From positions 1 to 60,035 of the forward strand of contig JAUCBJ010002294.1 of the NCBI GenBank assembly GCA_032718475.1: 60,035 nt of DNA, written 5' to 3'. The stretch is from Nemertoderma westbladi (taxonomy: Eukaryota > Animalia > Xenacoelomorpha). The notes beneath the pieces were generated by a model, which searched no databases, had not been told where the DNA came from, and saw nothing but the letters and a program-made list of their open reading frames with translations. Numbering within the stretch: position 1 is the stretch's first letter; each line of letters begins with the position of its first letter. This document shows positions 26,279 through 59,654 of this stretch, piece after piece. Made by a program: the position numbers and the translations under genes.

Positions 26279-26372
26279 GTGCGTAAACAATGAATTCATT
26301 TTCGTTTGTGTGGCGAACCTAGCAGCAATTGCAGTTCCCTAACTGACGCAAATATTATTGTGACGAATTCCG

Positions 26373-30286: not shown

Positions 30287-31262
30287 TACACCAGCAACAA
30301 CATACAAAATATACAGCAGATAAGTACAAACAATTAAACCTCAAGTCACCACCTTATGGGACCCCACCCCACCTACCACTTATTATCGGTTCGTGTCGTG
30401 TACAGCATTACAACTGATGTGGCTACAGCGTAATTTGGTGATACTGATGGGAAGCTGGTCATGCAAGGAATGTGAGACAGGGGGGTAACCTCGACGCAAA
30501 TCCCGCCTCAATGTTAAATTGTAAATTTAGTGAAAGGAGCAGGTTACAGTGGCACGTTATTTTAACCAAAGCAATAAACTAAACACAATAGAACAGGTTA
30601 TAGTTTTATTATTGAGAGTGATTAGCTGTTATTTGCGTCGAATTACCCCTGGAGAGGAATGAATTTTTATTGCGTCCAGTTGCTGAAATATTAGAGTTCG
30701 AATGTTGCATGGCATTGCCTATAAAATCATACTAGTAAGTAAAGTAGCTATTCATAAATAATCACGTTCGTGGGGACTTCGCGCAGCACGTAAGTCAAGA
30801 TGAGCCTTTGTGTAGAGGTACACTCAGTAGACCTAGTCATTCACCACCTAGCGGCAGACCGAGGACTGTGATACTGAAAGTCTGTCTGTGAGAAGAATTT
30901 ATTTCAATTACTTATTCAACAGTATCATATTTTCGTAACTAGTGATACTAAAGCGGTTAAATAGATTGATCTAAGACTATTCTAGAACTGATATCTTAAC
31001 TACAGTACTTCACTGAAAAACTCGAGATAATGTTGCAGCTATACACGGTTTCCAAATATGAATTGAATTTCGTTGCCAAATAGCTGATATATGGGCACTC
31101 GAAAGTTAAATGGTTTGGCACCTGCGCGAAGCTACAGTATTTCATATATTTGATAATTTCACTACTTCTAGAACATACAGTAATAATAATAATTATTATA
31201 TTTATACAACACTTTTCTACGCTCGGCATTCTTAAAGTGCTTTTACTGTATTATTATTTACC

Positions 31263-35895: not shown

Positions 35896-36022
35896 CTGAA
35901 AAATGAAAATCAATCAAAATGTTATCACACAGGTAATAATTATTTTATTGCTAAACATTATATCGGTAACTATTAAACATAAACATATGTTAGAATACAT
36001 TATATATTAATCCTTTGCTTAA

Positions 36023-36410
36023 GGCCTGTTTACACGTGGCAACTTTTAGAGCAACTTTCTCGGCAACTAGCAACTTTTTTTTAGCAACTTAATTTAATCG
36101 CTGTTTACACGTGGCAACTTTACCAGCAACTTTACCAGCCACTTCGCCGACAACTTTTAGAGCAACTTGGCTAGTTTAATTGTAAAATAGTGGGTCATTT
36201 TATCTACTAGCTAGTTTTTGATAAGTTAATTTGATTATCCCGCAATAATTCGCCAACGCAAATTCCTTCAAGTTGCCGTAAAAGTTGAGCAACTTTTACT
36301 TTTACGGCAACTTTTTTACGTGTTTACACGGAGCAACTTGATCGGCAACCTGGGTTGCTCTACAAGTTGCCGAGAAAGTTGCTCTAAAAGTTGCCACGTG
36401 TAAACAGGCC
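36023..36410. mobile_element. PIF/Harbinger (Tourist-type) MITE, 388 bp
   Basis: Perfect 46-bp TIR GGCCTGTTTACACGTGGCAACTTTTAGAGCAACTTTCTCGGCAACT, TAA on both flanks, and many internal GCAACT motifs. Confidence 0.95.
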
Positions 36411-36489
36411 TAAACGGAACCAACGATAAATTATGTTGATTTTTCCTCTCAAGGACCAATATAAATAAATTTGATTGGAACAAAGATTA

Positions 36490-40800: not shown

Positions 40801-41440
40801 TATACTTTATTTAATTGATTGATAAATAACAGATTAAAAATTAATTTAAAATTACATACTATTATTTAAGTAAAATATTTATACTTGTACAAAGAGATTG
40901 AAAAGGATTGAAAATATTTCATCACGACCGAGATTTTAACTCAAAAATTTCTGTTCTGAAATACAACGCCTTACACATTAGGCTATCTGTGACATATTGG
41001 AACGTTTGTTTCTCGCACCACGTAGTCAGCGAGCCTTGGCAAACGGTTCATATTTATAAACGTAAATTCTCACATCAAGCAGAGAGAACATTTATAAAAT
41101 TTCTAAAAGTGTGTAATTAACTTGCCCGTAATTAATTTGTCAAATTTATATTCCCCGATAATCACCTGTTTACATACAGGTAATTATCGGGTAATAATAA
41201 TTTTACAAATTAATTGATTCGAATTAAAAATCTGATTTATCTGGAACTTTAATACTAATATTTCCAAATGTATTTCTTTATATTATAGAAGAAAAGAGTT
41301 GAACCGATTGAGTGCGCCGAAGACACATCATCATCTCTTAATATCAGCTCTACGTCCTTCACCCATGATTGTTCCCTTGACGACGATTTGGAGCCGTAAT
41401 GGAAGCGTCGCCTACAAAGACCCGAAAAACCCTCTAACTC

Positions 41441-42651
41441 TGTTCGCGCTTTCAGACCTTTGGCAGTTTAACCCGCCAAATTATGATGTCTTCTAGATAT
41501 TAAATCGCTTTTTAGCCTACGACAAGTATTTGATTCACTACACTAGTCGAAACCAATCCGTGCGCGATCATTCACCCGCTGGTTATACCCGGGAGATTGG
41601 GTTCGACGGTTTAATCTTATTGCTATGTAAGCCTAATGTATTATTCGACTGACAGTATTATATAATCTCTGACAATATTATTCACCTTCGGGGAATATTA
41701 ACAGTTCCTTTAGGACGTGGCGCTCTATCTATATAAACAGAGTTATGACTTAAACTACTCACAACGATATGGTTTAGTTATAATTAACATATATGGCGCA
41801 TTCTTTAGGAAATGCTTCTTTAACAGACTCACTCATACACAATGCTGCACAATACTGCACACTAATCTGCCGATCTTCACTGATTTTAGTCACATATAAA
41901 AGGAACACAGACTGACTCATGTAGGGTCTATCAAATAACATTCGATTCACTTCAAACCACTTTAACATAAGTCACAATCGTTTATCTGTAACCTTTCTCT
42001 CTTACCTTCGGTATATCAAGAATATTGGGTTTCGGGGTTATTTATCGTTATTCCAAATATAATAATTCATCCACAAATATAATGAATAACCGACAGTAAA
42101 TAGCAGTATAAAACAACAACTGAACACTAATTGTTATGAGTTTGCAATGTTTCAGCAGTCAGTAGTATGCCGTGCGTCAGGCAGTTTGATGAGTTTGGTC
42201 GATATGCAGTTAAAGGATATATGTCCTTATAATTAAACCTACTAGTGTTGAGCTAAAAAGCAGAAAAGCACAAAACACTATAAAGCCGTTCTTTCGTGGC
42301 TTTGAAAAACTCGTGACTACGAGAATACCAACTACACTTATTCCACGAAGCTCCCGTTCAACACAGAGGATGAGCAGTGAGATAGGAAAATTTCAGTTCA
42401 GTAGCTCAGGATAGGTTAAAATCCAGGATAACTCAAATTCTATTGGGAGATACAAAAACAGGGCTATGACGCAACCCTCTTAGGCTGGTTGGCCGATTAA
42501 ACAGAGCCCAGATACCTGCGTACCGCAAATCAGCCAATAAGCTGGTAGCTTGCACTATTTTAACTATAGATCCCTTTTTGAGTATTCTAGCGACCGGGGG
42601 GGAACTGGCCAGCAAAGCAAACGAACCAGTTATCCCACAAAAGCTTTTACA
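41441..42651 (-). repeat. 3' LTR
   Basis: Direct repeat of 57627-58837 with about 11 substitutions seen by eye. Confidence 0.97.
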
Positions 42652-42660
42652 CCGCTCCCA
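42652..42660 (-). other. Short polypurine-tract-like sequence (TGGGAGCGG) abutting the 3' LTR
   Basis: Lies immediately 5' of the LTR TGT on the element strand; short and imperfect. Confidence 0.55.
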
Positions 42661-42729
42661 GAAAATGGGATTTAAGTCTATAAAATATACAAAATCACAG
42701 TTTCTAAAATATAAAAATACTCTAAACAG

Positions 42730-45700
42730 TTAGTCTTTCTTGCGCGGACGGCGTTTACGCAGTTTCTTGAGGCTAGCAAGAGTCCTTTTCTCTTTGGGGC
42801 GAGCCACTTTATGAGGAGGGCTGTAGCTCCTAGGCGAAGGGTGCAATACGATTGCATCAGAAGGTGTAGGATTACGATCGGTATACCCGCCGGTCGAAGT
42901 ACCTGGTTGATTAATATCAACCTCAGTGGAGCGAGGTCTAACGGCCTTTAGAGCGCGTCTCAGGACAGCAGCTCCCACGGGTCCTTGACGGGTCGTCTGG
43001 ACACTAGCGGTGGGTGGACCGTGAGTGGTGAGGAACTTTCTCGGTTTAATGGTTCTCTCCAGCTCGCGTTCTCGGGTTCGATATTCATATGGTCGCCGAG
43101 ATATTTCCTGTAGTTCAGGATGCGAGTTTACAAAGATGTCGCCATACTCAGGGTCCTGACGTATAAAATTGATCAGGTGATAGGTGGTTATATCATTAGG
43201 GTTGACGTTTCTAAGGTATTTTCTGACAAACTTGGTGGAAATACACTCACCAACACGCTTCATTAACTCGTAACTTGGTACGCGTGTTTTCTGTTCAATC
43301 GACGCGAATAGGTAAGGATGGAACGCGTAAACTCCCTCGTAAGCTCGTCCAGGGTAGTAGCGATGTCGGGATTCGCAATGTAAATCCGCATTCGCTTCCC
43401 AAGCTCGGATGTATCGCAGGGTGATCATCTCGTCTACGCTCTCTAAATCGCGATTAAAGGGACAATTATAACTTTCATGTCCTTTAAGTTGACAGTAGTG
43501 ACACTGAGTCATAAATTGTGGGCAGACAGCAAAAATATGAGAGTTATTAAGTCTGCAATAAGCACAATATATTTCCATCATCGGTTGTTCGAGGAAATAG
43601 GAGCAAGGTGCGTTGGAGTCGAGAGGGGTGAAGTGGTCTCTCGATGCGCATAATCGACAACGTTTTCGGGAAACGTAGTTGGCGTGTCGATAATCGTACG
43701 CTGTGAGACGTTGTGGACCTTGATACCACTCTATAACATAATCATTGTCACTGCTCCGGGAAGCTGTAGGCTGAATCGCTTCTGATTCCAAGCATACTGG
43801 CTCATCCTCCAACTGCATAGACGAAGTGGGTGCGTCTGTTTCCGTAAGTGGACCCACTGTTTGTATTTCCACGACAGAATATCCCGTAGGTATTCGAGGT
43901 CTTTGTATAACAGATGAATGTAAGTTCTGTATACAAACGTCTTGAAAAACGGCAAATCCAGCGCTACTCAGTTTCTCCGCAGCTGAGTCTCTCAGACTGA
44001 GTTTGGTCAGCGCGCGGTCCTTGAACTGACTATCGACGTTACGGAACGGAGTCAGAAAGCGCCGGAAACATTCGAAACGTATAAACTTATTGTGTTCGTC
44101 TAACTTGGCGAGTTTAGTTCCAAGTATTAATGGGTGAGCGCGTATGGTACGACTGCACACATCGGCTAGCCAACCGGCAAGTGCTGCGTTTTCAAAGATC
44201 GTGTATATAGCTAAGGAAGGACGAAGTGGAACACTCATAAAGCTATATACGGCACCAGGCGCAGTTAACGGTCCATCAAAATATAAACGAGAGTAATGAT
44301 CTCCATATACTTGCTGGTAATTGATAGGATTTCCAACTTTGAAATTCCAACCATATTCTTGAAAGGCAAGATGTCCGATGGATGTCCGTTGTACTTTAGT
44401 AATGCCGCTGGGTGTATTAGCATACATAGTGCGAAAGAAACCTCGGCCTTCGGCCCAAGGAGCAATCAGCTGAGTATCAACGAAAGGGTATGGAATGTTC
44501 TCCATATTCCGGAAGTCGTTTTGGAGATCTCCATAAACAGCTGAGCCGATTTTTAGAATTCTTTCGTTAAACAACATTTCGAGTACAGGTTGGGGTAACA
44601 TTGATCCATCGATACCCATGGCCGGTTTGCGCTCGGTGTCGGTGACGTAACGCTGCGCAAGCTCGAATTGTCCATGTCGAAGTTTCTTTTGTATCTCTGT
44701 AAGAGCTTCAAAAGAATAATCAATTACGTCGGAACACGCTCGAGTGAATACGTGGGTAGAACCAGCGAGTCCTCGTATATGTATCATTCGCGTAGTTCCT
44801 AGTTCTCCCACCGGAACGCTACCTTCGTTGTCATAAGTAACAACGCCATACATCTCGATAACGTTAAGAGTCTCGTTCCATTCTTTAGTGGCGTTTTCGA
44901 GAGTCATTCCCACTGGATGCCACAAAGTAGCGCACTCGTTAGCATTGGGTAAATCTCTATACTTTAAGCATTGTGTAGTATAGGTTTCCACATCTCCATA
45001 TCGTTTTATTCTTTCTTCCTCGAATAACACGTCAAGATTCCAGTGCACTAATCGAGTTTTAATGAATCCATCAAGATTGTACGGAGGTGATATTTCTTTC
45101 TCTATTCTAGAAATATTATACGGTTTTCGAAATGAGTTTAGTTTAACTAGCTGATCTAGATGTTTTTGTAGTTGTTCGAGTTCGACAAGATCGAGAGGAT
45201 TGATTAATGGTAGGAACCTCAGACTATGCGTAGGATCTTCCGGTTTCACCATGTAATATTGCTTCAAATTGACGTAATAAGGGTGATCCTTAATTCCATA
45301 AAATGAGTCCGGCAAAGGTCTAGCGCGTATGTTAACATCGTGCACCATGCGACGGACAAGATCCGCTCTATTGTCCGGAGGCTCAACAAGTACGCCATCG
45401 ACACGAGCAGCCTCGACGGGTGGACGTTGTAGCATGGGAGCGTCAGCAACGAGCTCGTGAGATCTGAGATCAGTATTAACCGGTTGAGGTTGTACCGTAG
45501 CAAAGAGCTTGTCTTTGAAATGAGGAACCATCGAGGGGTGGAGGATCGTTTTGGAATAGAGATCCGTCACGAGAATTTGAGCTTCTGGTTGAGCTAAAGC
45601 TGCTTCTTCCCTCTCAGTCAGCTCTATATGTCTTTCCTCGAGCTGATTTTCCTCCGCTTGTTGTTGCAAGCGCTCGTCCAGGAATTCCTGTAAAGAGTAG

Positions 45701-46983
45701 GTTCGTCCACGTTCGATGTCCTCCTCTAGATTTTGTATTTCTCTATCGAACTGGGGTAAAGCTAGTTCTTTCACCGCTTGGACTTGTTGTTGCAATTTAC
45801 GTTTCTCCAAGCAATCGTAAGTTCCTTTTCCGATTTTCTGCCGAATAGCGTCCAATGCATTTCGTATCACGCTCTCTTCGACTTCTGTAACAGGTTGGAT
45901 CGGAGGAAGGCCAGGACGGTTGTAGGGGTTAAACGGTGATATTAGATGACCGCGTCCTAGTCCAGCGAGGTAAGGTTGGCGAATATCCAACGAACCCACT
46001 ACCGGAGTGCCACCAATCAACTGTTCAGGTAACACTAGATCTTTGAACAGTGAGTACAGTTCGGGAGGATCCGTAATACTATTAGGGTCTAGAGTTTGAG
46101 GTATCACTTGTGAATGGGGAGGTCTGACCGAGTATTCCGGAACTCTGATCATGGGTTTATTCAATGATCGCTTAAGGCGCGCGACCGTAGGTGATACGTC
46201 GAAAAGGTTACGCTCGAAACTCCCATAAGTATATCGCGTAAAACTGTGTTTAGCGCAACGTCTCCGAGGATGTTTATGCCTTTCGATTTGCTGGTTAGGT
46301 CTAGGGCATTCGTCACAGTAATACCAAAGACGCACGTCTTGAAGGGGAAACGCGGGTGATCGCTCTCCAGTTTTACAATATTCCTCCATCTGTTCGAAGC
46401 TATCTGGAACGACAGGTAGCGGTCGATCGGCGGTAAGATACATCATCGTAAAATAGAGCCGTTTGAGTTCCATTATAGGATCTGGATGTATACCTTGAGG
46501 ATATCGAGTTTCGAGATTTTGTTGACTGGCAACATTGAGATAGGTCTCTCGTAAGAATTCTAGATAATCGTTGAAACCGTTACGTTTATCAGGTTCTTCA
46601 ACGTCTTCTCTTTCGAGTTTGTTTCGAATAGAGTTCTCGTGTTCTATTCTCGATTTATCGTTTCGACTCCGCTGGGTATGATATTTAAATAAAACCATTT
46701 CCCTTTCGGTGTCTACATCGTCCGTATCGTGTAAATCGATAGGGTGACCAGTAGTCAAGAAGTCCATATACGTACCATTACGATGCGTATAGCGAGCCGT
46801 GAACTTTCTATAATCCAATTCACGCGTAAGTTGCTCCTGGGACATTGGCGGTTCGATATAACGACCATCGTCCTCCGTAGTAGTTGGATCAGCGTCGCCG
46901 CGTATCAAGCTATCGACAAACGCTTGTAAAGGTAGAGTATATCTCTCCCTGATACCAAGATCATCTTCTATTAATTCAGTCAT
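42730..46983 (-). CDS. Accessory ORF3 of the retrotransposon, 1417 aa: coiled coil, DEDDy-like (RNase D/WRN-type) 3'-5' exonuclease, CCHC knuckles and basic tail
   Basis: Long intact ATG-initiated ORF between integrase and the 3' LTR. ExoI-like VVTYDNEG, ExoII-like ILKIGSAVYGDL, FVDTQLIA, ExoIII-like PLRPSLAIYTIFEN; CAYC..H..C and CHYC..GH..C; no signal peptide or membrane anchor is visible. Confidence 0.8.
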   Translation of the reverse strand: MTELIEDDLGIRERYTLPLQAFVDSLIRGDADPTTTEDDGRYIEPPMSQEQLTRELDYRKFTARYTHRNGTYMDFLTTGHPIDLHDTDDVDTEREMVLFKYHTQRSRNDKSRIEHENSIRNKLEREDVEEPDKRNGFNDYLEFLRETYLNVASQQNLETRYPQGIHPDPIMELKRLYFTMMYLTADRPLPVVPDSFEQMEEYCKTGERSPAFPLQDVRLWYYCDECPRPNQQIERHKHPRRRCAKHSFTRYTYGSFERNLFDVSPTVARLKRSLNKPMIRVPEYSVRPPHSQVIPQTLDPNSITDPPELYSLFKDLVLPEQLIGGTPVVGSLDIRQPYLAGLGRGHLISPFNPYNRPGLPPIQPVTEVEESVIRNALDAIRQKIGKGTYDCLEKRKLQQQVQAVKELALPQFDREIQNLEEDIERGRTYSLQEFLDERLQQQAEENQLEERHIELTEREEAALAQPEAQILVTDLYSKTILHPSMVPHFKDKLFATVQPQPVNTDLRSHELVADAPMLQRPPVEAARVDGVLVEPPDNRADLVRRMVHDVNIRARPLPDSFYGIKDHPYYVNLKQYYMVKPEDPTHSLRFLPLINPLDLVELEQLQKHLDQLVKLNSFRKPYNISRIEKEISPPYNLDGFIKTRLVHWNLDVLFEEERIKRYGDVETYTTQCLKYRDLPNANECATLWHPVGMTLENATKEWNETLNVIEMYGVVTYDNEGSVPVGELGTTRMIHIRGLAGSTHVFTRACSDVIDYSFEALTEIQKKLRHGQFELAQRYVTDTERKPAMGIDGSMLPQPVLEMLFNERILKIGSAVYGDLQNDFRNMENIPYPFVDTQLIAPWAEGRGFFRTMYANTPSGITKVQRTSIGHLAFQEYGWNFKVGNPINYQQVYGDHYSRLYFDGPLTAPGAVYSFMSVPLRPSLAIYTIFENAALAGWLADVCSRTIRAHPLILGTKLAKLDEHNKFIRFECFRRFLTPFRNVDSQFKDRALTKLSLRDSAAEKLSSAGFAVFQDVCIQNLHSSVIQRPRIPTGYSVVEIQTVGPLTETDAPTSSMQLEDEPVCLESEAIQPTASRSSDNDYVIEWYQGPQRLTAYDYRHANYVSRKRCRLCASRDHFTPLDSNAPCSYFLEQPMMEIYCAYCRLNNSHIFAVCPQFMTQCHYCQLKGHESYNCPFNRDLESVDEMITLRYIRAWEANADLHCESRHRYYPGRAYEGVYAFHPYLFASIEQKTRVPSYELMKRVGECISTKFVRKYLRNVNPNDITTYHLINFIRQDPEYGDIFVNSHPELQEISRRPYEYRTRERELERTIKPRKFLTTHGPPTASVQTTRQGPVGAAVLRRALKAVRPRSTEVDINQPGTSTGGYTDRNPTPSDAIVLHPSPRSYSPPHKVARPKEKRTLASLKKLRKRRPRKKD

Positions 46984-48633
46984 ATCTGCTATACGAGTTC
47001 ACCAATATTATAATGAGTTTATATATCGTTAGGCGAGCGGGCGTCGCTGCCTATTTCTCCCTTGCCCCCGGACAGTAAGAGATTCTCAGCGCCGATGTAC
47101 CGCTGTAGCTGTACTTTCGCCAACGACGTAGCTGTACAACGACAACGATAACCGGCACAAGTCACTCCACTGTCCGTCCCAAAGGCTTAGATGTACTTCA
47201 GGTTTTCCTTGGAGAGTTAGGTTACTTTTACGATTGCGACTAGCTACTGTAAACACACTTTAGCAGTAACATTCACCTATAAACTCACAAATACCACACA
47301 ACTTGTCACAACTACACACATTCGGGCCATTTGTCCGTTAGTCAATGCCTTCCAGAATGTCACTGTATTGTTATGTATCCTTGGATACTAGCAGTGCGCT
47401 ATTTATTCCCTATGCTATTCAATGGGACAAGCTTTCTATTGTTCTTTTTACTCAATTCTAATTCTAGCGTGGTTGTTGCTATGGTGACATTATGCAAAGC
47501 TAGCGGTAGAATTAGGGTAATTCCAATGCATACAGATCTGGGATGTTATTTAATAGTAATTCTTTAATAGTCAATGTCCTGTTTTATACATGACTTTATG
47601 AATTTTATCGGCTATTGACTATGTTTGGGAGACTTTCGTACACGCATACGCATAATAATATAAATCTCCGCTCCCTTGATCTATTAATTAATGGAATTTT
47701 GGGAATGTTATAAATTGCGTAAAATGGCAATTTATTAAATTCATTAAAAGACATGAATTTAAATTTATTCCCTGAAATTTTATTATTTGATAATTAAATG
47801 GACATATTTTGATTCTAGAACATGTCTAGGGACACAAGATCCTTAATTCTAAGAAAATTGTCTCTTTAAGAATATCGGTAAATGCTACGATATCTTAATT
47901 GACTAGAATTGTTGAAGGATCTGAATTTTACAGATTTTGACTTATTTGATTTGTAAATATTAACTAATTAATATTTGAGATGGGCACCGATTTATTCCAG
48001 AACTTGTCTGGGGACGTTAACCACTGATTCTATAATTTGTCTTTCAAGTATATCGGTGGGTGCCACGATATCTTAATCGACTAGAATTACAGATGGTCAA
48101 AGGGTTTAACAGATTTATTTTGCGTTATACGCTACTGTTAAAGGGACATCACGCTACTATATGTATTATTTAATATACGGTATGAGAGCAATATCGCACG
48201 AAGCAATGTCAGTGTGAAGAGGCAAGTCGTTTCCAAGGTCTACCCAGAGCTTGGTTTAGCCGAGACACGAGGATCTGAACTTTGCATTCCTAATACTCTG
48301 CCTACCAATAATACTTGAATATAGTAGTGGCTTTATTGTACTTTAATAAGTACGGACATTTCATCTTACTGTAGTTACGTATTTATAATATAATACGGAC
48401 AGTAAGGAAAGAGAAAAATAATTATTTCTTCGCCGTCGCACTAAATATAATATAAGTAATTACGTACGTAATAAACACGAATATATTGCACTATTCTACT
48501 AAATAATCGCTAAATAATATTCTACTAAATTAAATAAAACGATTATAATAAAATTACATAGTAATACATACATAAATATAAAAATAATAAAATAATATAA
48601 AATAATAGAGTCACACGCCCACTCCGAACGATA

Positions 48634-50433
48634 TTAAGTTGGGGAGTCCCTAGATGTCGGTTGGATTAGGGAAGTGGTCGTGGGAAGAGTTTCTTGCCTT
48701 CCATAGTTTCCGGAGAGCTCTCTGTCTCTTTCCAGTAAACATAAACGACCCACTGGGCGATTGAGCTGTTGAGTCTCAAAGACTATCCCTGGTTTCTTAA
48801 AGTTCCGCCGCATGACGACGAGCTCTACTGATCGCACCAAACCATCGCTCGAGATATAAGTCTCGATGATACGTCCTGTTTGCCATCGCTTACGTGGGAG
48901 ATCGGGGTCCACAATAAGCACCATGTCTCCAGCGCTGACGTTTTCTTGCTGCGCAAACCACTTAGTTCGAAGTTGTAGAGTGGGCAGGTAATGTTTCTCG
49001 AAATGGTCAGCGAAACGACGGGATAGCAACTGCATAAGTTGCCAGGTTCGACGGCAGTACTCGTCTCCGTCTGTGATCTCCGATCGTGGGAGCATGGCTA
49101 CGGGCTTCTTCAGTAGAAAGTGCGCGGGTGTTAGCGCTTCCAGGGAATCAGGATTTGAAGAGACTGGCATAAGCGGTCTTTCGTTGAGATAGGCGGCGAT
49201 TTCCTCCATTAACGTCCGCAATAGTTCGTCGGTGAGATAAGCGCGACAAGGCACAATAAAGTGGAACGCAGTCTTCACGCTCCTAATCAATCTCTCCCAA
49301 CTTCCTCCCCACCAAGGGGCGTCGGCGGCGTTGAAGGTCCAGCTAGACGCTGTTATCCTTAGCTGATCGTCCACCTGTCTTTTGTTCCAGTCCTTTACGT
49401 AAGCTTGAATTTCGTTGTTGGCGCCAATGAAGTTCGTTCCCTTATCCGATCTCATCGTGTTACTGGTTCCGAAGCGAGCGATCTGTCGTCGTAAACTCAA
49501 CACGAAGCTGTTGGTGGATAGATCGTTTACCATATCGAGATGGATAGCTCTACAAGTCATACAAACGAAGATGACACACCATCTCTTGACTATAGTCCGG
49601 GCACGATATACTTCAATAGGGCCAAATAAATCCACACCGGTATTAGTAAAGGGTGGTTCATAGAAGCTTACTCTTTCCCTAGGTAATTCTGCCTCTCGCT
49701 GTGTTAAAGGCCTACTGAATGCTTTCCTACAGGGTATGCAGTTCCTAAGAACTTGGTTCAGAGCCCTACGAGGTTTATAAAAATAGTAGCGAGTTCGAAT
49801 TTCGCTCAGAACTCGTTCTCTACCAGCATGATACAGTTTGCTATGAACATCTACAATTATCTTGATTTGTATGTCAAGATTTCTAATAAGTATGGGAAAC
49901 TTAGTGTCAAAGGATAATGGGGCGTTTGTTAGCCGACCTCCAACACGTATTAACCCATCTATCATGGTACTAGAGAAGCGATCCCTTAAGCGCATCTGTG
50001 GATTTCTTAACAACAGGAAATACTTATCGGAATCCTCATAGCATTGTAGGAGTCTCAGCATCTGTTTGTTGGTTTCATCATGCTCATGGTAACTGATCTT
50101 TTCCTTTAGAAACCTGTCGGGTATCTTGTACTTAGGAAGATCTTTAACAACATGGACTCGTGCAGATGTTGATGGAGCCTCATCACTATTGGTCTTTGTC
50201 CCGGAGTAACGATGATGAAAACATCGTTTCAAATAAGTGACAGCTTTACAGAGCCGATTCCAGGAACTGTAGTGACGTATCGCTCTCTGCAAGAGAGGTG
50301 AGAGTCCTTGCGCGATATCTGGTATTCCAGATTTCCAATCCTTGTCACGGATTTCCAAGACTTCTTTGGTCGTGGCGGTGGGTTTCTGATCTAAAGCATC
50401 CTGCTCCGGAAGTAAATAATACAGATAGATCAA
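48634..50433 (-). CDS. BEL/Pao integrase (in a different frame from gag-pol)
   Basis: HHCC motif (HSKLYH...CIPC), catalytic GVDLFGP / SDKGTNF / WERLIRSVK, LTPAHFL and the BEL C-terminal DGLVRSVEL...RPVGRLCLL. Confidence 0.93.
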   Translation of the reverse strand: MIYLYYLLPEQDALDQKPTATTKEVLEIRDKDWKSGIPDIAQGLSPLLQRAIRHYSSWNRLCKAVTYLKRCFHHRYSGTKTNSDEAPSTSARVHVVKDLPKYKIPDRFLKEKISYHEHDETNKQMLRLLQCYEDSDKYFLLLRNPQMRLRDRFSSTMIDGLIRVGGRLTNAPLSFDTKFPILIRNLDIQIKIIVDVHSKLYHAGRERVLSEIRTRYYFYKPRRALNQVLRNCIPCRKAFSRPLTQREAELPRERVSFYEPPFTNTGVDLFGPIEVYRARTIVKRWCVIFVCMTCRAIHLDMVNDLSTNSFVLSLRRQIARFGTSNTMRSDKGTNFIGANNEIQAYVKDWNKRQVDDQLRITASSWTFNAADAPWWGGSWERLIRSVKTAFHFIVPCRAYLTDELLRTLMEEIAAYLNERPLMPVSSNPDSLEALTPAHFLLKKPVAMLPRSEITDGDEYCRRTWQLMQLLSRRFADHFEKHYLPTLQLRTKWFAQQENVSAGDMVLIVDPDLPRKRWQTGRIIETYISSDGLVRSVELVVMRRNFKKPGIVFETQQLNRPVGRLCLLERDRELSGNYGRQETLPTTTSLIQPTSRDSPT

Positions 50434-53400
50434 CCGCAGGTTTAAACAACTTCGATTTACTCGCTCGAGTTTTGGGTTTAACTTTCTCCGCTCCCTTGGC
50501 CTGTCTGATCTCTGCTGTTGTGAGGTGGGGAGGCCATTCTTCTTCTTCTTGGTAGAGAAAGTCGGGTCCTCCTAACCATTCGGGAGTATTTACCAATTCC
50601 TTTGGAGTCGCTCCTCGGGAAGCGATGTCTGCTGGATTAATCGTTCCGGGGCAATGTCTCCATTGGTCCATCGTCGTGCGACTAAGTATGATGGCTACCC
50701 TGTTGGTAACGAAGACGCTGAACTGACAGACTTCATTGGTTATATACTCTAACACGAGTAAAGCGTCGGTCCAATAGACAGTTTTCTCTAATGGATAGTC
50801 AATCTGTTCTGTTACATTCCGGCCGATGGCTGTAGCGTATAGAGCCGCCTTTAACTCCGCTCGAGGAACTTTCAACTTGTTGTTGATTAATGCCTTAGAA
50901 GTAACCAAGGCGACTTTGATTCCATCCGGAGTTTCCACTCTTAGGTAGGCTACTATACCTATTCCCATATCGCTGGCGTCTCCAAACACATGGAGTTGAT
51001 AGGAATACGTAGGGAGAACATGACCAAAATATGAACGGGAAATTATAAAATCCTCGATCGCCGGTAGAGAATCTTCCCATTTCATCCACTTCTTTAATAA
51101 TTCTCCCTTAAGTGGATCGTCCCATGAGTGGTTTTCAAGCCACATTTGTTGCACCAAACTACGAGCAATCAATATAACTGGGCTAATAAATCCCAATGGA
51201 TCGAAATAAGTGCTCAGTATACTTAAGCAAATCCGTTTGGTTCGAACTGGATTATCTCGCTGTTTTAGTTGGAAAAACAGGATATCTCTCTCTGTGTCCC
51301 ATTTCAAGCCGAGTGTCTTGGTTTCTGGCAGATCATCTTTGATCAAATCGAGATCTTTCGCTCCTCGATCCTCCGCAGGGATCGACTCCAGAAACTCACG
51401 GGAGTTGCTGGTGAATTTCGTTAATCGAAACCCACCTCTTTTTAAGCACTCTACCGTTCCTTTAGCGACCTCAATGGCTTCCTCAACTGATGGAAGGGAC
51501 TTCAGATTGTCGTCCATGTATATGTCTCGCTTGATGTTGTCGATCACTTCCTTAGAGAAGGCCTCTCGGTTGTCCTCTGCAGTGGTACGCACTACCGAAC
51601 AGGCGTTGGAAGGGCTTGAGATTATCCCAAAGGCCTGGATGGTCATCCAGTACTCCACCGGTTTCTGGTTGAGGTCTCCTTCGGGCCACCATAGAAATCG
51701 TAAGCTATCTCGATCCCTATCCAACACTTTGACTTGCAAGAACATGCCTTCTATATCGGAGGCGAAAGCAATCGAATATTGTCTCAATCTTAAAAGAATT
51801 CCCAACAAAGATTGAAGTAAGTTGGGTCCGGGTAACAATTCAGAGTTAAGGGATTGACCCATGTAAAGAGCGGAGCCATCAAACACTACTCTCACTTCAT
51901 TGGGTTTACCGGGTTTAGGAACGTAATGGTGAGTTAAATAATACGTTCTTTCAGTCACAGGTGTTTCTTCCGGTACCCTCTCCGCGTATCCCTTATTAAT
52001 AAATTTTTCCAGCTGTGTTTGATACATTGCTTTAGCTGAAGAATTAGCCGTAAGGCGTCGATGGAGTTGCGCGATTCTTTTTTCCGCCAAAGGTCTGTTA
52101 TTGATGAACTTCGGTTCTTTCTTGCGAAAAGGTAAACCGACTTCATACCTACCTTGATCTTTGATGAAACGTGTAGTTGTCTCTTGGATCTGCTTGGCCC
52201 TTTCCTCTTCCACTGATAAGGCCTTATCGTAGGAATTGGGCTCTACTGCCTCTTGCGTAAAGAATCGTACAGCATGTTCATCTCGAGTCTTGGCATTACA
52301 ACGCTCAATGGCGTCATTTAACTCGTCGTTATAAGCTTCTCGTTCAGATGGATAAAGAAGTTGACATAAGTTAACTTGGTTTTGCCAAGCCTCGTTTTCC
52401 TTAAGGAGATCGATAGTATTCTCCTCATCAAAGAGCTGGTGAATGTCGTCGTTATCTGAGGAGTATGGAGTTCCCTCAGTTAAATCGTCTCCTTCACTAG
52501 TATCATCTTCCCATTCACTCACCTGGCAAACTCGCTCTTGCGGTAGTCTTTCTCTGAGTGTTCTACGGGAAGGTCCAGTAAAGTACCAACCTACTCTAGT
52601 TCTTACCGCATAGGTCTGTAGTGGCTGCGGTTGAGCAGGCCGTTTCTCTAATGTCTCCAGCGCCTCATGCGCGTTTTGGCCGATGAGTATTTGCACTCCA
52701 GGATAATCAGTCTGAAATCGAGGTATGTTAAGATGTTGGATGCTCTCATCCTCGTCCCAATTATAAAGGTCTGCTTGGGTAGTAGCGAAGTTCTTTATAG
52801 CTACCATTTTCACTGACCTGATGCTATGTTCTCCTAGTTCGTCCTGGGGGGTGGACAACGCTCCTACATAATAATCCGCTGTTATTGTGGATTTCCAGAC
52901 TTGCATAATGCCTGACATGTTTAGCGTAGTTCGGAACTTGGGTTGTCCAGCAAATATGTCTTCGGCTAGCTCTTGGTCGATGAATGTTCCTGTACTACCG
53001 GAGTCAAGGAGGGCGTTCACTACGTAACTCCGTTTAGGTCCGTGAACCCTTACCTGTACCACAGGAAACTCTCGGATCCCTACATTGGAAGATGGCTCTT
53101 TCCCAGATGGTTGTCGCTCAGAAGTAGTTAGAGTGAGGTCGCTGTCTGTATCTTTTTCATATGTGAGTGCTCGATACACTGCGGTATTTATCAGGTAACA
53201 GGATTCGTTTTCGTCGGAGAACTCATCCGTATAGAATCCTTCCATCTCAGATTGGTCAGTGTCGTTCACATCACTGAATTGGACATGTAGTTCGGAATCA
53301 CTTACCTGATTCGGAGTATTTCGCTCGAATTCAGCGTGCAACAAGATATGATGTTTCGCACCACACTTAGCACACCTTATGTCAGAGAAACAGGTTCGCC

Positions 53401-55420
53401 GTTGGTGTCCTTGTCTGAGGCAATTATAACATAACCGCTTATCCCACATGACTTCGCGTCTCTCAGTTAATGATTTCTTCAGGAATTCATCACACATGTT
53501 CAAACGGTGGGTCCCGTCACACAGCGCACATTTCGGTTTGATGTTACTCACCTTATTCTGAGTCACATTGTGTACACTTGCTTTTTCTTCGGGCTTTCTC
53601 ACCTGAATTCTCTTGGGAGACGTAGGAGGAGTTTTTCTTACCTGTTCTCTCCTGTCATTTGTTCGAGACTTGAATTTACTCACCTGATCTTTAGGCATTT
53701 TATTCACGTAATAAGATCTATCAGTGTCCTTCCCGCTATCTTCTCCTTGAGAAGTCTGGCTTTCGCCGTCGTCTGTGTAACACACTGGTGTTACCCTTCT
53801 CCTAGAGACGGGTTTTTCACTTACCTTGTTTTCCGGTGTCTTCTCTCTGGATTGCTTGAGGAGTTGCAATTTCACTTCTCCATCCAGGAATGACATGAGA
53901 TCTGCCATGGTAGGGTCTCGTCGTTGTTGTTCCATCATATATAGTACTTTCTTATCCCAGCGTGTGCCTACCCCACCTTTCGGTAAAGTAGAAGCCACAG
54001 CTCCAATGACCATAGAACTTTGGTATTCATGAGACTTACCTAACCAATCTAATTGTCTACAGATCTCTTGAATCTCATCGGAAAACTCTATTATCCCACT
54101 GCTGATGAACTTTCTGGGCGCTACTAATTTTGCATATAAATACTTAGCGATATTATTCCTATTACCATACCTGATGTTTAGTGTATCCCAAACTTGTCTT
54201 AATCCGTCTGGATGTCCAATAAACTTTAACGCCATTAACTTGGGAGATCTTTCCAAGCACTCGATGAGGAACCTAAGTTTCTCTCCATTAGACAGTACAG
54301 AGTTCTGTATGTTATCTTTGTAATATTCATTAAAAGGTAACCATTTCATCTCATCTCCATTGAACTTGACGATCTCTCCCACCTTTACCGCTTGCCGGGC
54401 TTCGGTTCTAGCCATTTGACGCGTAAAACTTTCTTGGGCCATCGTGTTATTTAATATCGAGTTATCGGTATATAAATTTCTCGGATTATGATCCGATCTA
54501 TAGGGAATATCATTATCAACAGGTCTATAATTACCCTTAATAGGGTTCACTATAGGAGTTTCTACTTCGCTAGCAGTATAGATGCGTGTAGGCTCCACAC
54601 CTTGCGCATGAGATACTTCAGACCTAACGGGTTGACACATTGTTACAGGGGGTGGTGGTATACCCCTTTGCGTATTTACTAATTTATCGCGCTCTAGCGC
54701 GATACTTTGCTGCACTTCTTGCAACTCTAGTCTACTTTCCCTTACCGTGCCCTTAAATTGCTGGACAGTCTCCTGCATCTGCCCGAGCAGGATATCCATC
54801 CCCCGTCGTCTCTCGTCCACCCATTCGACCGCCGAAGCGGGAGTCGCCAACGATGTAGCGGGCGGACGAGGGACAACGGGCGACAAATTATGAATATTTC
54901 GCTCGGGGTCCAGGACCTGAACTGTCTCCTGGGCAGTTCTACGGGGCACAGGTAGCTTAGTGCTATGCAGAGGGAATTTAGCGGTTACTTCAGGGAGCAC
55001 AGGTGTGTCTATCACAGTAGGGGTGATTTCAAGAACAGGCCTAATTATTTCAGGCTCATCTACTATAGTAGGGAGTCTTTCGATTTTAATTATTTGGTCT
55101 GTGGGTTCTGTACTACCTAAATTGGTGCTATTTAGTTGCCTTCTAACAGCTGGAGGCAGATCAGGCAATTTCTGACGGTGGAATGTTCTTTTACGTCTAC
55201 TTAGACGAGATCTATTTCCCTTGCCTTCATTGTCGGTGGTATCGCCTTCCTCAGATGATGTATATCCCTGTCTTTTGGGAGTAGATCGATTCATCATCTG
55301 CATATTACTAGCTGTTAACTGTTTGTTTATGCAGTCTTGATTCTCTTGAATGTTTTCCAATTCTAATTGGTTGGTTTCTTCAGCCGCTCTCCGTTCTGCT
55401 TCTACCACTGCCACCGCCAC
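50345..55420 (-). CDS. BEL/Pao Gag-protease-RT-RNase H polyprotein (first ATG at 55303)
   Basis: Gag FNGD..KW..F...EKLRFL, three BEL knuckles (CALC..H..C, CYNC..GH..C, CAKC..HH..LH), protease ALLDSGS, RT YMDD, RNase H LHVFGDAS...PRAEL...NPADIASRG. Confidence 0.95.
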   Translation of the reverse strand: MAVAVVEAERRAAEETNQLELENIQENQDCINKQLTASNMQMMNRSTPKRQGYTSSEEGDTTDNEGKGNRSRLSRRKRTFHRQKLPDLPPAVRRQLNSTNLGSTEPTDQIIKIERLPTIVDEPEIIRPVLEITPTVIDTPVLPEVTAKFPLHSTKLPVPRRTAQETVQVLDPERNIHNLSPVVPRPPATSLATPASAVEWVDERRRGMDILLGQMQETVQQFKGTVRESRLELQEVQQSIALERDKLVNTQRGIPPPPVTMCQPVRSEVSHAQGVEPTRIYTASEVETPIVNPIKGNYRPVDNDIPYRSDHNPRNLYTDNSILNNTMAQESFTRQMARTEARQAVKVGEIVKFNGDEMKWLPFNEYYKDNIQNSVLSNGEKLRFLIECLERSPKLMALKFIGHPDGLRQVWDTLNIRYGNRNNIAKYLYAKLVAPRKFISSGIIEFSDEIQEICRQLDWLGKSHEYQSSMVIGAVASTLPKGGVGTRWDKKVLYMMEQQRRDPTMADLMSFLDGEVKLQLLKQSREKTPENKVSEKPVSRRRVTPVCYTDDGESQTSQGEDSGKDTDRSYYVNKMPKDQVSKFKSRTNDRREQVRKTPPTSPKRIQVRKPEEKASVHNVTQNKVSNIKPKCALCDGTHRLNMCDEFLKKSLTERREVMWDKRLCYNCLRQGHQRRTCFSDIRCAKCGAKHHILLHAEFERNTPNQVSDSELHVQFSDVNDTDQSEMEGFYTDEFSDENESCYLINTAVYRALTYEKDTDSDLTLTTSERQPSGKEPSSNVGIREFPVVQVRVHGPKRSYVVNALLDSGSTGTFIDQELAEDIFAGQPKFRTTLNMSGIMQVWKSTITADYYVGALSTPQDELGEHSIRSVKMVAIKNFATTQADLYNWDEDESIQHLNIPRFQTDYPGVQILIGQNAHEALETLEKRPAQPQPLQTYAVRTRVGWYFTGPSRRTLRERLPQERVCQVSEWEDDTSEGDDLTEGTPYSSDNDDIHQLFDEENTIDLLKENEAWQNQVNLCQLLYPSEREAYNDELNDAIERCNAKTRDEHAVRFFTQEAVEPNSYDKALSVEEERAKQIQETTTRFIKDQGRYEVGLPFRKKEPKFINNRPLAEKRIAQLHRRLTANSSAKAMYQTQLEKFINKGYAERVPEETPVTERTYYLTHHYVPKPGKPNEVRVVFDGSALYMGQSLNSELLPGPNLLQSLLGILLRLRQYSIAFASDIEGMFLQVKVLDRDRDSLRFLWWPEGDLNQKPVEYWMTIQAFGIISSPSNACSVVRTTAEDNREAFSKEVIDNIKRDIYMDDNLKSLPSVEEAIEVAKGTVECLKRGGFRLTKFTSNSREFLESIPAEDRGAKDLDLIKDDLPETKTLGLKWDTERDILFFQLKQRDNPVRTKRICLSILSTYFDPLGFISPVILIARSLVQQMWLENHSWDDPLKGELLKKWMKWEDSLPAIEDFIISRSYFGHVLPTYSYQLHVFGDASDMGIGIVAYLRVETPDGIKVALVTSKALINNKLKVPRAELKAALYATAIGRNVTEQIDYPLEKTVYWTDALLVLEYITNEVCQFSVFVTNRVAIILSRTTMDQWRHCPGTINPADIASRGATPKELVNTPEWLGGPDFLYQEEEEWPPHLTTAEIRQAKGAEKVKPKTRASKSKLFKPAVDLSVLFTSGAGCFRSETHRHDQRSLGNP

Positions 55421-56781
55421 TGCCGCCGTTGAATACCTACTGCTATATTACAGTCTAAGCAAGTCTAGTAATTCAGTATTAACTGCTAGCCTAGTAATTA
55501 ATTACCGATATTGCTACTCAATGTAGAGTGATATATATAATATATTAGAATACCGGTATGCTTATATTATATATAAGTATTATCACAGACTAGGTTTATC
55601 TCAGAATACCGGTATAATTTTAGCACAAATATATATAAATATATAATAGGCCTATCGGGAATACCGGTATACAGCTTACAGTTTGTAGTATATATAATTC
55701 TGGACTAGAATTAATTATAAGTACCGGTATAATTTCAGCCTAAATTTACAGAAATAAAGATAATAGGCCTATCGTAAATACCGGTATATCAATTATTTTA
55801 AATAATTGAATTTCTGTACTTTAGGGTTACTTGGTTACTCTACTTACTTTATTACCGTTATTTGAGCAGTAGTCCAACTGATATTGAGACCTAATGGTTG
55901 TATGGTAGGCCTACTATTTATAAATCGTTAGATTTGATTTATAATATATATATACCCGTTTAATGGGTTTTGTCAATGTTTGAAATAAATGTTATTATTT
56001 CTGGGGGGTAATCACTGCACAAAGCGGTACGCTTTCAGTGAAGTGTTACTTATAAGACACTAAAACAAATAATGCTAATTGACCTAAGTTACTTATACTA
56101 CAAATTACGTACGATTCGGGTTGAGATTACAATCTCTAAATAAACACAAAAATTTACAAAAACACAAATACGAATTTTTAGGGTAATTTTACAAGAAGTC
56201 TACAAACCAGCCTAACAAAGGGTTAGAAAATCTGGTTATTACAATGGACAGGGTACTACGGTATTTGAAAATAATAAGTAGTAGTAAATACACTGCGTTG
56301 TCTAGATAGGAAAATACCACCGCCTGACGACCTATAGCCGTATCGCTATAGGTTCTACGTTATGTATCACGGAGTGTTCCTACCTAGAAGCTAATAGAGC
56401 TAATCGAAGGTGCCTATCAACCACTTTACAACACAAATATAATGCCTACAATAATTACTTTCGGAAAGCACTGTACACTAAACCCTAAATTAGGTACGAG
56501 TACTTGTACAACAGATAATCAGTAGTTAAATATACTTGAACAGCTAAAAGAACCACGGCATCTGCTGGAGTAACCGGTGCACAAAATCACCAGTCTTTAC
56601 CTACGCCTAGCAGCCCGTGTAGTACTGGGGTTAATTTAACTATAACGGTATGTATAACAAACACAATTACTGTAGGAACAAACTTGGGGAATGAATGTTG
56701 CGGATAATCGCATAAACTCTGAATAATAAATATTACGCAACGCGTACAAACTACTTAAACAAAATGCAGACCAAATACCGA

Positions 56782-57293
56782 CAGACTACTATCAAGCCTA
56801 AACAAACTACGGTATATGCAGACTCTGAAATAATTAGGTAGTATGCGTTCTAACCCAGTAGTACGACTTATTCTTTAATTGGGGGTTTACCTTACAGCAT
56901 TCGCTGCCCCTACTTCCTAACCGTTCTTTATCGGACAAGTGATCTACACACGCTGCAATCCGTTCAGACCCAACAACAGCCAGACAACTATCCAGCCTAC
57001 AAATTATCTAAATAAAATTATACGCTACCTGTACAGACTTACACAAACAAAGTACAGACTAAACGATGGCAGACTACTCTCAAGCCTAAATAAACCACAG
57101 GACATGCAGACTCCGAAATGATTAGGGAGTATGCGTTCTAACCCAGTAGTACGACTTATTCTTTAATTGGGGGTTTACCTTACAGCATTCGCTGCCCCTA
57201 CTTCCTAACCGTACTTAATCGGACAGGTGCTCTACACACACTGTAATCCGTTCAGACTTAACAGCAATCAGACAACAGCTCGGCCTACAAATT
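56782..57293. repeat. Direct duplication (period 288 bp) in the retrotransposon 5' leader
   Basis: 56782-57005 is similar to 57070-57293, with a long identical core AGTATGCGTTCTAACCCAG...CTTCCTAACCGT. Confidence 0.9.
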
Positions 57294-57614
57294 GTCTGTA
57301 CAATCAGATCAGGCTTACACGTCTTCTGTTCAATACTGGCCTACAAACAAATAAAACTTGACAGAAATAAGTAAAATCTCAATAAAAACCAGGGCGGCCG
57401 TTCCCTGATTAAGTACTAAGACCTACAGGTATACAACAATCAAATCGAATAATACTAATGTACTTATACGGGAAGTACCGGTTAGGACAGTTAGGCCTAT
57501 GGACCTACAGAAGTACCGGTTCTTGCAATTGGGCCTACTGACCTACAGATATACCGTTCAGGTTTACCGGTTGACCGGTATTTTCAACCTTATTGCTTAC
57601 TGCAATAAAGAAGC

Positions 57615-57626
57615 TATATCCTTTAA
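57615..57626 (-). other. Non-tRNA primer-binding-site position, complementary to an LTR-internal 12-mer
   Basis: The element strand reads ...GAACA|TTAAAGGATATA; the LTR element strand contains TATATCCTTTAA (58407-58396 and 42221-42210). Confidence 0.7.
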
Positions 57627-58837
57627 TGTTCGCGCTTTCAGACCTTTGGCAGTTTAACCCGCCAAATTATGATGTCTTCTAGATATTAAATCGCTTTTTA
57701 GCCTACGACAAGTATTTGATTCACTACACTAGTCGAAACCAATCCGTGCGCGATCATTCACCCGCTGGTTATACCCGGGAGATTGGGTTCGACGGTTTAA
57801 TCTTATTGCTATGTAAGCCTAATGTATTATTCGACTGACAGTATTATATAATCTCTGACAATATTATTCACCTTTGGGGAATATTAACAGTTCCTTTAGG
57901 ACGTGGCGCTCTATCTATATAAACAGAGTTATGACTTAAACTACTCACAACGATATGGCTTAATTATAATTAACATATATGGCGCATTCTTTAGGAAATG
58001 CTTCTTTAACAGACTCACTCATACACAATGCTGCACAATACTGCACACTAATCTGCCGATCTTCACTGATTTTAGTCACATATAAAAGGAACACAGACTG
58101 ACTCATGTAGGGTCTATCAAATAACATTCGATTCACTTCAAACCACTTTAACATAAGTCACAATCGTTTATCTGTAACCTTTCTCTCTTACCTTCGGTAT
58201 ATCAAGAATATTGGGTTTCGGGGTTGTTTCTCGTTATTCCAAATATAATAATTCATCCACAAATATAATGAATAACCGACAGTAAATAGCAGTATAAAAC
58301 AACAACTGAACATTAATTATTATGAGTTTGCAATGTTTCAGCAGTCAGTAGTATGCCGTGCGTCAGGCAGTTTGATGAGTTTGGTCGATATGCAGTTAAA
58401 GGATATATGTCCTTATAATTAAACCTACTAGTGTTGAGCTAAAAAGCAGAAAAGCACAAAACACTATAAAGCCGTTCTTTCGTGGCTTTGAAAAACTCGT
58501 GACTACGAGAATACCAACTACACTTATTCCACGAAGCTCCCGTTCAACACAGAGGATGAGCAGTGAGATAGGAAAATTTCAGTTCAGTAGCTCAGGATAG
58601 GTTAAAATCCAGGATAACTCAAATTCTATTGGGAGATACAAAAACAGGGCTATGACGCAACCCTCTTAGGCTGGTTGGCCGATTAAACAGAGCCCAGATA
58701 ACTGCGTACCGCAAATCAGCCAATGAGCTGATAGCTTGCACTATTTTAACTATAGATCCCTTTTTGAGTATTCCAGCGACCGGGGGGGAACTGGCCAGCA
58801 AAGCAAACGAACCAGTTATCCCACAAAAGCTTTTACA
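57627..58837 (-). repeat. 5' LTR
   Basis: Direct repeat of 41441-42651; located upstream of gag on the minus strand. Confidence 0.97.
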
Positions 58838-59654
58838 AACTCTGACGAAACACGGCCTTCAAAAAGGCCAAAATTACGGAAATTGTTTTCAATAAAAAGA
58901 CGAGGTTCATTTAACTATGAAAAATTTAATTAAATGATTATTGATAATTATAATATTGCTTAATTGATGATTATAATGATTATAATAATTAATTATTAAA
59001 TAAATGGAAAAATTAATAGTAAATAATTTTTTGTAATATTGTAATATTAGGTAGGATGCTCTTTAATGTAGCTAAATTTTACCGATGTTCCATCAATGTG
59101 ATCGGCAAAATTCAACATCCAATTTCATCTTTATGTGCCTTCTACCACGTTACATACGTTTTACCGAACAAGGTCGGGTATATATTAATATTTTTCGATA
59201 ACAATATAACTATTCGGAAAGCAGCGCTTTTTTCAATGTTATTTTTAGTTTAGTAATATTCGACTATTATTATCAGAGTGGTTGAGTTTTGCACGAGTTT
59301 ATATCTTTCTAATACGAGCGAAACGAGTGCCCATATGCCAAAAAGCGTAAAACTCAACACACGAGAACAGAATATCATAATTTTGCTAAAAATTGATTGA
59401 GAGAGTGTTTTCCGTTACGTTTTTATATCGAATATATTATTTTGTTTGAAAAACAATTAAAGTAGGCCTACATGGCCTACGTTACAGACTGCCTTTTCAT
59501 CAGTGTCAAAGTTTGGCTAAATTTTCCGTTTCGAGTAATGGACAGAAAAGTTAATGTTTTGTCAAACTGAATGGCCATGCGTATAAATAACCCAATAACA
59601 AAAGTTAGATGGAACTATGGGAAACATCGTACGTTATATTAAATTAATATACTG

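Follow-up and report, generated by a model that had tools for sequence, protein, structure and literature searches.

A predicted RNase D-like exonuclease gene with zinc knuckles in the env position of a BEL/Pao retrotransposon of Nemertoderma westbladi

The stretch of DNA analysed here (the window) comprises 60,035 nucleotides of the xenacoelomorph Nemertoderma westbladi (assembly GCA_032718475.1, contig JAUCBJ010002294.1, positions 1 to 60,035), and contains on its minus strand a BEL/Pao long terminal repeat (LTR) retrotransposon with a third open reading frame (ORF3) in the env position. This ORF3 is almost certainly a working gene, i.e., an integral and selected accessory gene of the element, and for its product we predict an RNase D-like 3′-5′ exoribonuclease (DEDDy class, with the acids D-E-D-E) joined to three zinc knuckles. 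The best explanation of the whole, to which we assign a probability of roughly 0.4, is that this protein acts as a nuclear RNA-trimming factor on antisense or guide RNAs by which the element is silenced. The parts of ORF3 on which this proposal is built are as follows:

42730..46983, minus strand: ORF3, a non-env accessory gene (1417 amino acids; ATG at 46983; stop-to-stop frame 42730-46998)
46246..46317, minus strand: Cys/His cluster (CDEC..HKH..CAKH; residues 223-246), matching no known family
44101..44928, minus strand: RNase D/EXD2-like (DEDDy-class) domain (residues 686-961), with an insertion of about 30 amino acids near residues 748-777
43462..43659, minus strand: three CCHC-type knuckles (residues 1109-1174; starts at 1109, 1140 and 1161)
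43315..43401, minus strand: post-knuckle block (residues 1195-1223), similar to the F/W-E..AD...G-F/Y-F block seen in remote relatives
42736..42768, minus strand: basic tail KKLRKRRPRKK (9 K/R in 11 residues)

An open frame of this length would arise by chance at about 3e-34. The frame starts 1.65 kb past the integrase stop; its end is separated from the 3′ LTR by 78 bases, which include the polypurine tract. The intact 1417-codon frame in the env position reported in a preliminary description was recovered as such. Since its Kyte-Doolittle hydropathy (19-residue mean) peaks at 1.19, and at 0.46 near the N-terminus, ORF3 contains neither a membrane segment nor a signal peptide, again as had been described. 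A reading of ORF3 as an env gene was ruled out (no signal peptide, no membrane anchor, and no Pfam or PDB match).

On the kinship of the central domain to the RNase D group, five tests, each either controlled or not presuming the answer, agreed. A scan of the ORF3 protein query (P0001) against 18,950 NCBIfam models returned two matches only, both to RNase D (E = 0.021 and 0.15). A three-sequence family profile (A3), run against 301 bacterial genomes at E ≤ 0.01 per genome, retrieved nine proteins, i.e., seven RNase D proteins and two PolA exonuclease domains. In the reverse direction, a profile of 36 bacterial RNase D/PolA domains scored P0001 and its remote relative P0002 above all 1004 shuffled or reversed decoys. 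As part of this reverse test, HHalign against 31 of these 36 domains (five were dropped as being in the wrong frame or cut) yielded 90% (E = 1.7e-6), with 60 decoys at or below 5.7%, and lined up the ExoI motif in global mode. In the ESM Atlas, a PF01612 cluster ranked third (0.92), after two unnamed clusters. Finally, a PDB search with profile A3 gave two matches, the best of which was human EXD2 (E = 0.27). Searches by phmmer of the PDB with P0001 and P0003 (a further relative) gave none. Residues ~700-950 thus very probably adopt an RNase D/EXD2-like fold, as the preliminary description had proposed from motif order. With RNase D, EXD2, the WRN exonuclease, Nibbler/Mut-7 and Rrp6 (the PF01612 group), the domain shares the order and spacing of ExoI, ExoII, DTQ and ExoIII as well as an alignable ExoII region; it differs from them by the ~30-residue insertion after the third strand and by 14 extra residues near ExoIII. 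No HRDC domain was detected in ORF3, and the nuclease domain, scoring below all curated cut-offs, is assigned to no subfamily.

The motifs within the domain were located as follows (all in ORF3):

44835-44821, minus strand: YDNEG motif
44598-44581, minus strand: LPQPVL motif
44553-44521, minus strand: KIGSAVYGDLQ motif
44484-44470, minus strand: FVDTQ motif
44382-44365, minus strand: SIGHLA motif
44352-44338, minus strand: GWNFK motif
44229-44191, minus strand: PLRPSLAIYTIFE motif, ExoIII region

The putative catalytic residues D718 and E720 (ExoI) and D819 (ExoII) align with RNase D, P0002 and P0003. The ExoIII region contains two PL-x6-Y-x3 motifs, 14 residues apart, i.e., Y913-x3-S917 and Y927-x3-E931, neither of which carries Asp; a DNA-level duplication behind this pair was not seen (15/42 nt). 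BLASTP against P0002 places E931 at ExoIII, and ungapped scores over 34 residues favour the same register (25 versus -11 against P0002, and 15 versus -6 against P0003). The corresponding residue is also Glu in P0002 and is Asp in P0003, giving acidic sets of D62/E64/D130/E233 and D72/E74/D150/D241, respectively. E931 is somewhat more likely than not the ExoIII residue, and we lean towards a catalytically active nuclease domain. Of the earlier proposal that ExoIII has Glu for Asp, the residue stands as the better of two registers, while the assignment is not unique given S917 14 residues upstream.

When residues 560-1300 were searched in full with HMMER against 1.84 billion representatives, three matches were obtained (E = 1.2e-7, 2.2e-4 and 2.2e-4); apart from P0002, word-based protein searches retrieved nothing. 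The layout of ORF3, i.e., a nuclease-like domain, a linker, three knuckles and a short block thereafter, recurs in P0002 and P0003, and the three proteins are mutually only 21-30% identical yet keep the putative catalytic acids. P0003 belongs to a cluster of five near-identical members (P0003 and P0005-P0008) on nine contigs, one of them truncated at 424 amino acids, as might be expected of a mobile gene present in many copies. The relative P0004 has a degenerate nuclease-like part, in which the ExoI Glu is lost, followed by two tandem three-knuckle modules; its 3.7-kb locus (L001) holds a single-ORF gene (124-2022) and neither gag-pol nor a repeat. A search for further loci found none for P0003 in metagenome or viral contigs, and none for P0002 or P0004 in viral contigs. 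Judged by their shared layout, ORF3 and its relatives would define an unannotated exonuclease-plus-three-knuckle protein group.

Selection on the domain was assessed among copies of the element, which were sampled as contigs from public runs. Contigs aligned to 44160-44860 showed 131 differences at a 25% share, of which the 40 best supported were examined. As many as 36 of these 40 were synonymous, against 23-30% under neutrality (pN/pS, i.e., the ratio of non-synonymous to synonymous differences per site, of 0.03-0.05; p < 1e-14 with differences taken singly); the other 91 could behave otherwise, and well-supported rows favour old subfamily differences. The four non-synonymous ones all fell in residues 760-774, within the insertion missing from the relatives, and the four acidic codons were untouched by any of the best 40. 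No insertions or deletions reaching the 25% share were listed in the domain, and across ORF3 as a whole, 9/12 of the contig differences listed were synonymous. The nuclease domain is under purifying selection among copies, a check that the preliminary description had called for, and because 36 of the 40 best-supported differences are synonymous, it is regarded as a working part of the element.

Outside the nuclease domain, the three knuckles match those of nucleocapsid, Lin28 and Air2 proteins. All three knuckles of the preliminary description are present; only the third is a canonical CX2CX4HX4C, the other two being CX2CX4HX9C and CX2CX5HX4C. A search of the ESM Atlas with the knuckle region gave only leads below 0.9. 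The possibility that the knuckles were copied from the Gag knuckles of the element itself was ruled out (BLASTP E = 5.6). The post-knuckle block beats shuffles against one of four relative blocks. The basic tail, found where it had been described, is likely a nuclear localisation signal, and basic clusters also occur in P0002 (C-terminal) and P0003. Towards the N-terminus, the Cys/His cluster was located as described, and no relative or family was found for the first 600 residues. The acidic coiled coil reported for this part holds as regards composition (21 D/E and 12 Q in residues 401-500), which makes the segment a candidate coiled coil. Upstream of the gene, one further signal was recorded:

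47018..47025, minus strand: candidate internal promoter, with a TATA-box consensus 42 nt ahead of the ATG of ORF3

This consensus suggests that ORF3 may have its own transcript; the AG just before the ATG could serve as an alternative signal, i.e., as a splice acceptor. In the proposed mechanism, ORF3 would be expressed from this transcript and its product directed to the nucleus by the basic tail, where the knuckles would grip single-stranded RNA and the nuclease would trim back the 3′ ends of antisense or small guide RNAs directed against the element. A substrate of RNA rather than DNA is inferred by analogy with the Trypanosoma brucei enzyme RND (see below) and from the match of the knuckles to those of nucleocapsid, Lin28 and Air2. 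The nuclear site, like the functions offered in the preliminary description (primer maturation, proofreading or interference with small-RNA silencing), is a proposal.

The element that hosts ORF3 is a single LTR element of 17,397 bp (41441-58837, minus strand), with the following features:

58838..58842, minus strand: target-site duplication GAGTT, upstream copy (5 bp, flanking the 5′ LTR)
57627..58837, minus strand: 5′ LTR (1211 bp, TG...CA; 11 mismatches in 1211 versus the 3′ LTR, no gaps)
50345..55447, minus strand: ORF1, encoding gag (DUF1759, three knuckles), protease, reverse transcriptase and RNase H region (Peptidase_A17)
48634..50571, minus strand: ORF2, encoding integrase (H2C2, DUF5641), in a frame different from that of ORF1
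42652..42659, minus strand: polypurine tract, directly before the 3′ LTR
41441..42651, minus strand: 3′ LTR (1211 bp; compared pairwise with the 5′ LTR)
41436..41440, minus strand: target-site duplication GAGTT, downstream copy (5 bp, flanking the 3′ LTR)

Pfam matches in ORF1 and ORF2 (Peptidase_A17, E = 8e-36; DUF1759, 1e-9; DUF5641, 1.5e-19; Integrase_H2C2, 1.7e-7) lie in the protease, reverse transcriptase, RNase H, integrase order of the BEL/Pao type, and by its gag-pol domains, LTR ends and target duplication the element is a BEL/Pao LTR retrotransposon. Because the LTRs (99.1% identical) differ at 11 positions only and the TG..CA ends and the GAGTT duplication are intact, the insertion is young. 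All 30 bins of the element were matched by contigs of four public runs (140,012 contigs in run X1 alone), and the family is large, old and still recently active. No relative of the reverse transcriptase region was found in the viral contigs searched. Summed contig depth was lower over ORF3 than over pol, a measure that cannot rank genes and was not used as evidence.

At the start of the internal region, two positions bear on how the element might prime its reverse transcription:

57615..57626, minus strand: primer-binding position, 12 nt complementary to the element's own LTR
58396..58407, minus strand: candidate self-primer (LTR nt 431-442), paired with the primer site in the centroid fold; the same letters recur at 42210-42221 in the 3′ LTR

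No TGG, as in a tRNA-type primer-binding site (PBS), occurs within 60 nt after the 5′ LTR, and no tRNA gene or Rfam family was found within the element. Instead, the 12 nt that directly follow the LTR are perfectly complementary to LTR nt 431-442 (12/12 at offset 0), whereas such a match has a background of 2/14,963 internal and 10/82,776 flanking positions. The centroid fold contains this 12-nt duplex plus four more pairs past a small loop. The match was found post hoc and in one copy of the element, and 9/400 control 20-mers pair as well by energy. As it stands, this BEL/Pao element bears a signature of Tf1-like self-priming, with a tRNA fragment as a possible alternative primer. In Tf1-type self-primed LTR elements, the PBS is likewise complementary to the own LTR rather than to a tRNA; those named in the passages covered (Tf1/sushi, Tj1, Tcn1 and TAR) are of gypsy or copia lineages, with no BEL/Pao element among them (PMC4600332, PMC6317226). 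No report of BEL/Pao self-priming was found in the literature covered, including PMC3601003, PMC6317226, PMC5443660 and PMC13269885 in part, with Repbase, supplements and most subscription papers falling outside that scope.

Several results weigh against an active RNA-trimming exonuclease that counters silencing. All domain matches lay below curated cut-offs and were weak singly, the Pfam scan with the whole of ORF3 gave no match, and under the bacterial RNase D/PolA profile neither P0003 nor P0004 stood out from the decoys. An AlphaFold model with no known nucleases in the alignment had a pLDDT (predicted local distance difference test) of 33, too poor to bear on the fold, with no DEDD fold found and no clear match by Foldseek or VIA-align. 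A second model, whose alignment included RNase D, had a core pLDDT of 60-84, and its 50 VIA-align rows consisted of DEDD-family folds throughout, the best match (Z 8.4, root-mean-square deviation 5.8, 120 aligned) being tied with three others; this second model is circular, has a pLDDT of 32-45 in the ExoIII region and indicates compatibility only. In addition, MAFFT and HHalign both chose the register with S917 at ExoIII, RNase D sequences themselves split between the registers (14/27), and Glu in place of the fourth Asp may weaken metal binding. From P0004, it would appear that the family can persist without catalysis. The counter-silencing target is a tentative assignment, and a trans-acting suppressor would be a shared good, fitting strong copy-level selection less well than a function in cis. 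The S917 register, the Glu for Asp in even the better one, and the loss of the ExoI Glu in P0004 would also suit a pseudo-nuclease, in which the RNase D fold and the knuckles bind element RNA and the acidic helical region links it to a transport or protection machinery, as EXD1 and Egalitarian do for host RNAs; these two proteins are among the fold matches of the circular model. Egalitarian is not known to be catalytic. EXD1 is described as non-catalytic (PMC5408684). Such a protein is unlikely, if a serious contender, given that D718, E720 and D819 are kept in three proteins of such low mutual identity, that the 34-residue ungapped scores favour E931, and that both AlphaFold models begin a long helix near residue 920. 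That ORF3 instead acts on DNA, proofreading or trimming cDNA (complementary DNA) 3′ ends as WRN, EXD2 and PolA domains can, and thereby aids the copying of a 17-kb genome, would agree with the presence of EXD2, WRN and PolA domains among the matches and with an element whose length well exceeds the 4.2-10 kb typical of BEL/Pao (PMC3118150). This is quite improbable, however, since ORF3 is not fused to pol, the best profile matches are RNase D (7/9) and this type of knuckle mostly binds single-stranded RNA. The knuckles of T. brucei RND hold RNA (PMC7797062). Finally, the single sequence matches are weak (E = 0.02-0.3 in library searches) and, among the contigs listed, none bridges pol and ORF3, as would be the case for an unrelated nested insertion or a chance likeness to nucleases. 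This we hold to be highly improbable, as several differently built tests point to one family, the GC content of ORF3 (45.5%) resembles that of pol (44.8% and 46.6%), contigs 15-20% diverged cover ORF3 as well as pol, and the synonymous bias described above is strong. No internal LTR pair, long inverted repeats or repeat pair bounding an insert was found inside the element, and the nested insertion considered in the preliminary description thus found no support.

The remaining explanation assigns ORF3 to primer maturation: a 5′ stretch of the element's own RNA would prime reverse transcription, cut back by the exonuclease from a longer 5′ fragment to the 12-bp duplex. The absence of a tRNA-type PBS, the exact complement that is rare in the background and the duplex in the centroid fold all agree with this, RNase D-type enzymes are known to trim single-stranded 3′ tails of structured RNA (PMC5408684), and a role in cis fits copy-level selection. 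It is nevertheless fairly unlikely, considering the post hoc nature of the match and the control 20-mers that pair as well. Moreover, the basic tail points to the nucleus, whereas priming takes place in particles. The primer cut in Tf1 is a role of RNase H, and no accessory exonuclease is known to take part. Tf1 self-primes by an endonucleolytic cut (PMC4600332). The joint proposition of a BEL/Pao lineage that dropped tRNA priming, folds the 5′ piece of its RNA onto the primer site and carries its own primer-maturing exonuclease-knuckle enzyme is improbable; if true, the element would encode a nuclease devoted to processing its primer, and DEDDy ORF3s would have a first defined job.

The precedent of DEDDy exonucleases in invertebrate retroelements that the preliminary description had mentioned is real, such ORF3s having been described for the rotifer Juno1/2, Vesta2/5 and Athena/Terminon elements (PMC5408684; also PMC6431247 and PMC6338049). 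Like ORF3, these are RNase D-like 3′-5′ exonuclease genes in the env position, without membrane features and with one catalytic Asp replaced by Glu, and in both cases function is predicted (PMC5408684). They differ in their gypsy-like rather than BEL/Pao hosts and in the site of the replacement, which is predicted DEDE here (fourth acid, with Asp at ExoII) versus DEED in rotifers (PMC5408684). With its 1417 amino acids, three knuckles, N-terminal Cys/His cluster and basic tail, ORF3 also stands apart from the rotifer ORFs, which are stated to lack coiled-coil and transmembrane domains and for which only a Cys-His-Cys motif is mentioned (PMC5408684). Furthermore, ORF3 occurs in high copy number under purifying selection; in rotifers, neutral variation was seen in those ORF3s that were tested, of the env and GDSL types (PMC5408684). 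In the literature covered, DEDDy ORF3s were found for unrelated rotifer elements only. ORF3 extends retrotransposon DEDDy exonucleases to BEL/Pao and shows selection on the domain among copies, which is missing in the rotifer study. The role of these exonucleases has been unsettled since the rotifer description, and a young, high-copy family makes the question testable; if small-RNA silencing is indeed what the nuclease disarms, this would be a rare case of counter-defence by an animal transposon.

A cellular counterpart is the RND of Trypanosoma brucei (PDB 7C42), in which four CCHC knuckles hold RNA and the RNase D domain trims guide RNA 3′ ends (PMC7797062). It shares with ORF3 the order of a DEDDy domain, a linker and a CCHC knuckle array, and differs in being a cellular mitochondrial enzyme with a canonical DEDD (PMC7797062). 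Sequence matched over the knuckles only (E = 0.0013), and the fold match (Z 7.0) is circular; the two are likely a parallel architecture. The element itself resembles other BEL/Pao elements (Belpaoviridae) in its DUF1759 gag with three knuckles, Peptidase_A17, DUF5641, gag-pol domain order, TG..CA LTRs and 5-bp target-site duplication, and departs from them in its length (17.4 kb versus 4.2-10 kb), its non-env third gene and its lack of a tRNA PBS (PMC3118150). In the passages covered of that BEL/Pao survey, env is the only extra gene mentioned and the word 'exonuclease' does not appear (PMC3118150). No BEL/Pao exonuclease gene was found in the literature within the scope given above, outside of which similar elements may exist.

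Some further observations concern the element. The reading frame of pol changes between its RNase H and integrase parts (50345-50571), and one contig from the public runs shows a gap at this ORF1/ORF2 junction. BEL/Pao elements usually have one frame across RNase H and integrase, and the frame change may be a programmed shift, reflect damage to this copy or stem from misassembly. The leader (55448-57614, ~2.2 kb) is non-coding and unusually long and contains, besides shorter repeats, a direct repeat pair of 288 bp (56752-57297); the equally non-coding and unusually long spacer before ORF3 (46984-48633, 1.65 kb) contains a 178-bp spaced repeat. Deleted derivatives without the integrase region (48763-50481) occurred among contigs of all four runs, and others without the middle of ORF3 (42874-45626; 43733-46609) among contigs of the public runs, which suggests non-autonomous copies.

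Outside the element, the window consists of animal DNA in which long genes are encoded in single exons. A Slit-like gene (7916-12418; 1500 amino acids), INTS8 (18067-20589), IFT52 (26364-27659) and an alpha/beta hydrolase (21464-22519) each form one uninterrupted ORF, and these may be very intron-poor animal genes or retrocopies. At 654-2344, 15-bp units are arrayed in tandem with a higher-order repeat of 171 bp, and the array is open in several frames; a weak CEP63-like coiled-coil ORF (E = 1e-6, below cut-off) lies at 29663-30340. Finally, an inverted repeat with arms of 72 nt (85%) enclosing 296 nt was noted at 35997-36436, resembling a miniature inverted-repeat transposable element.

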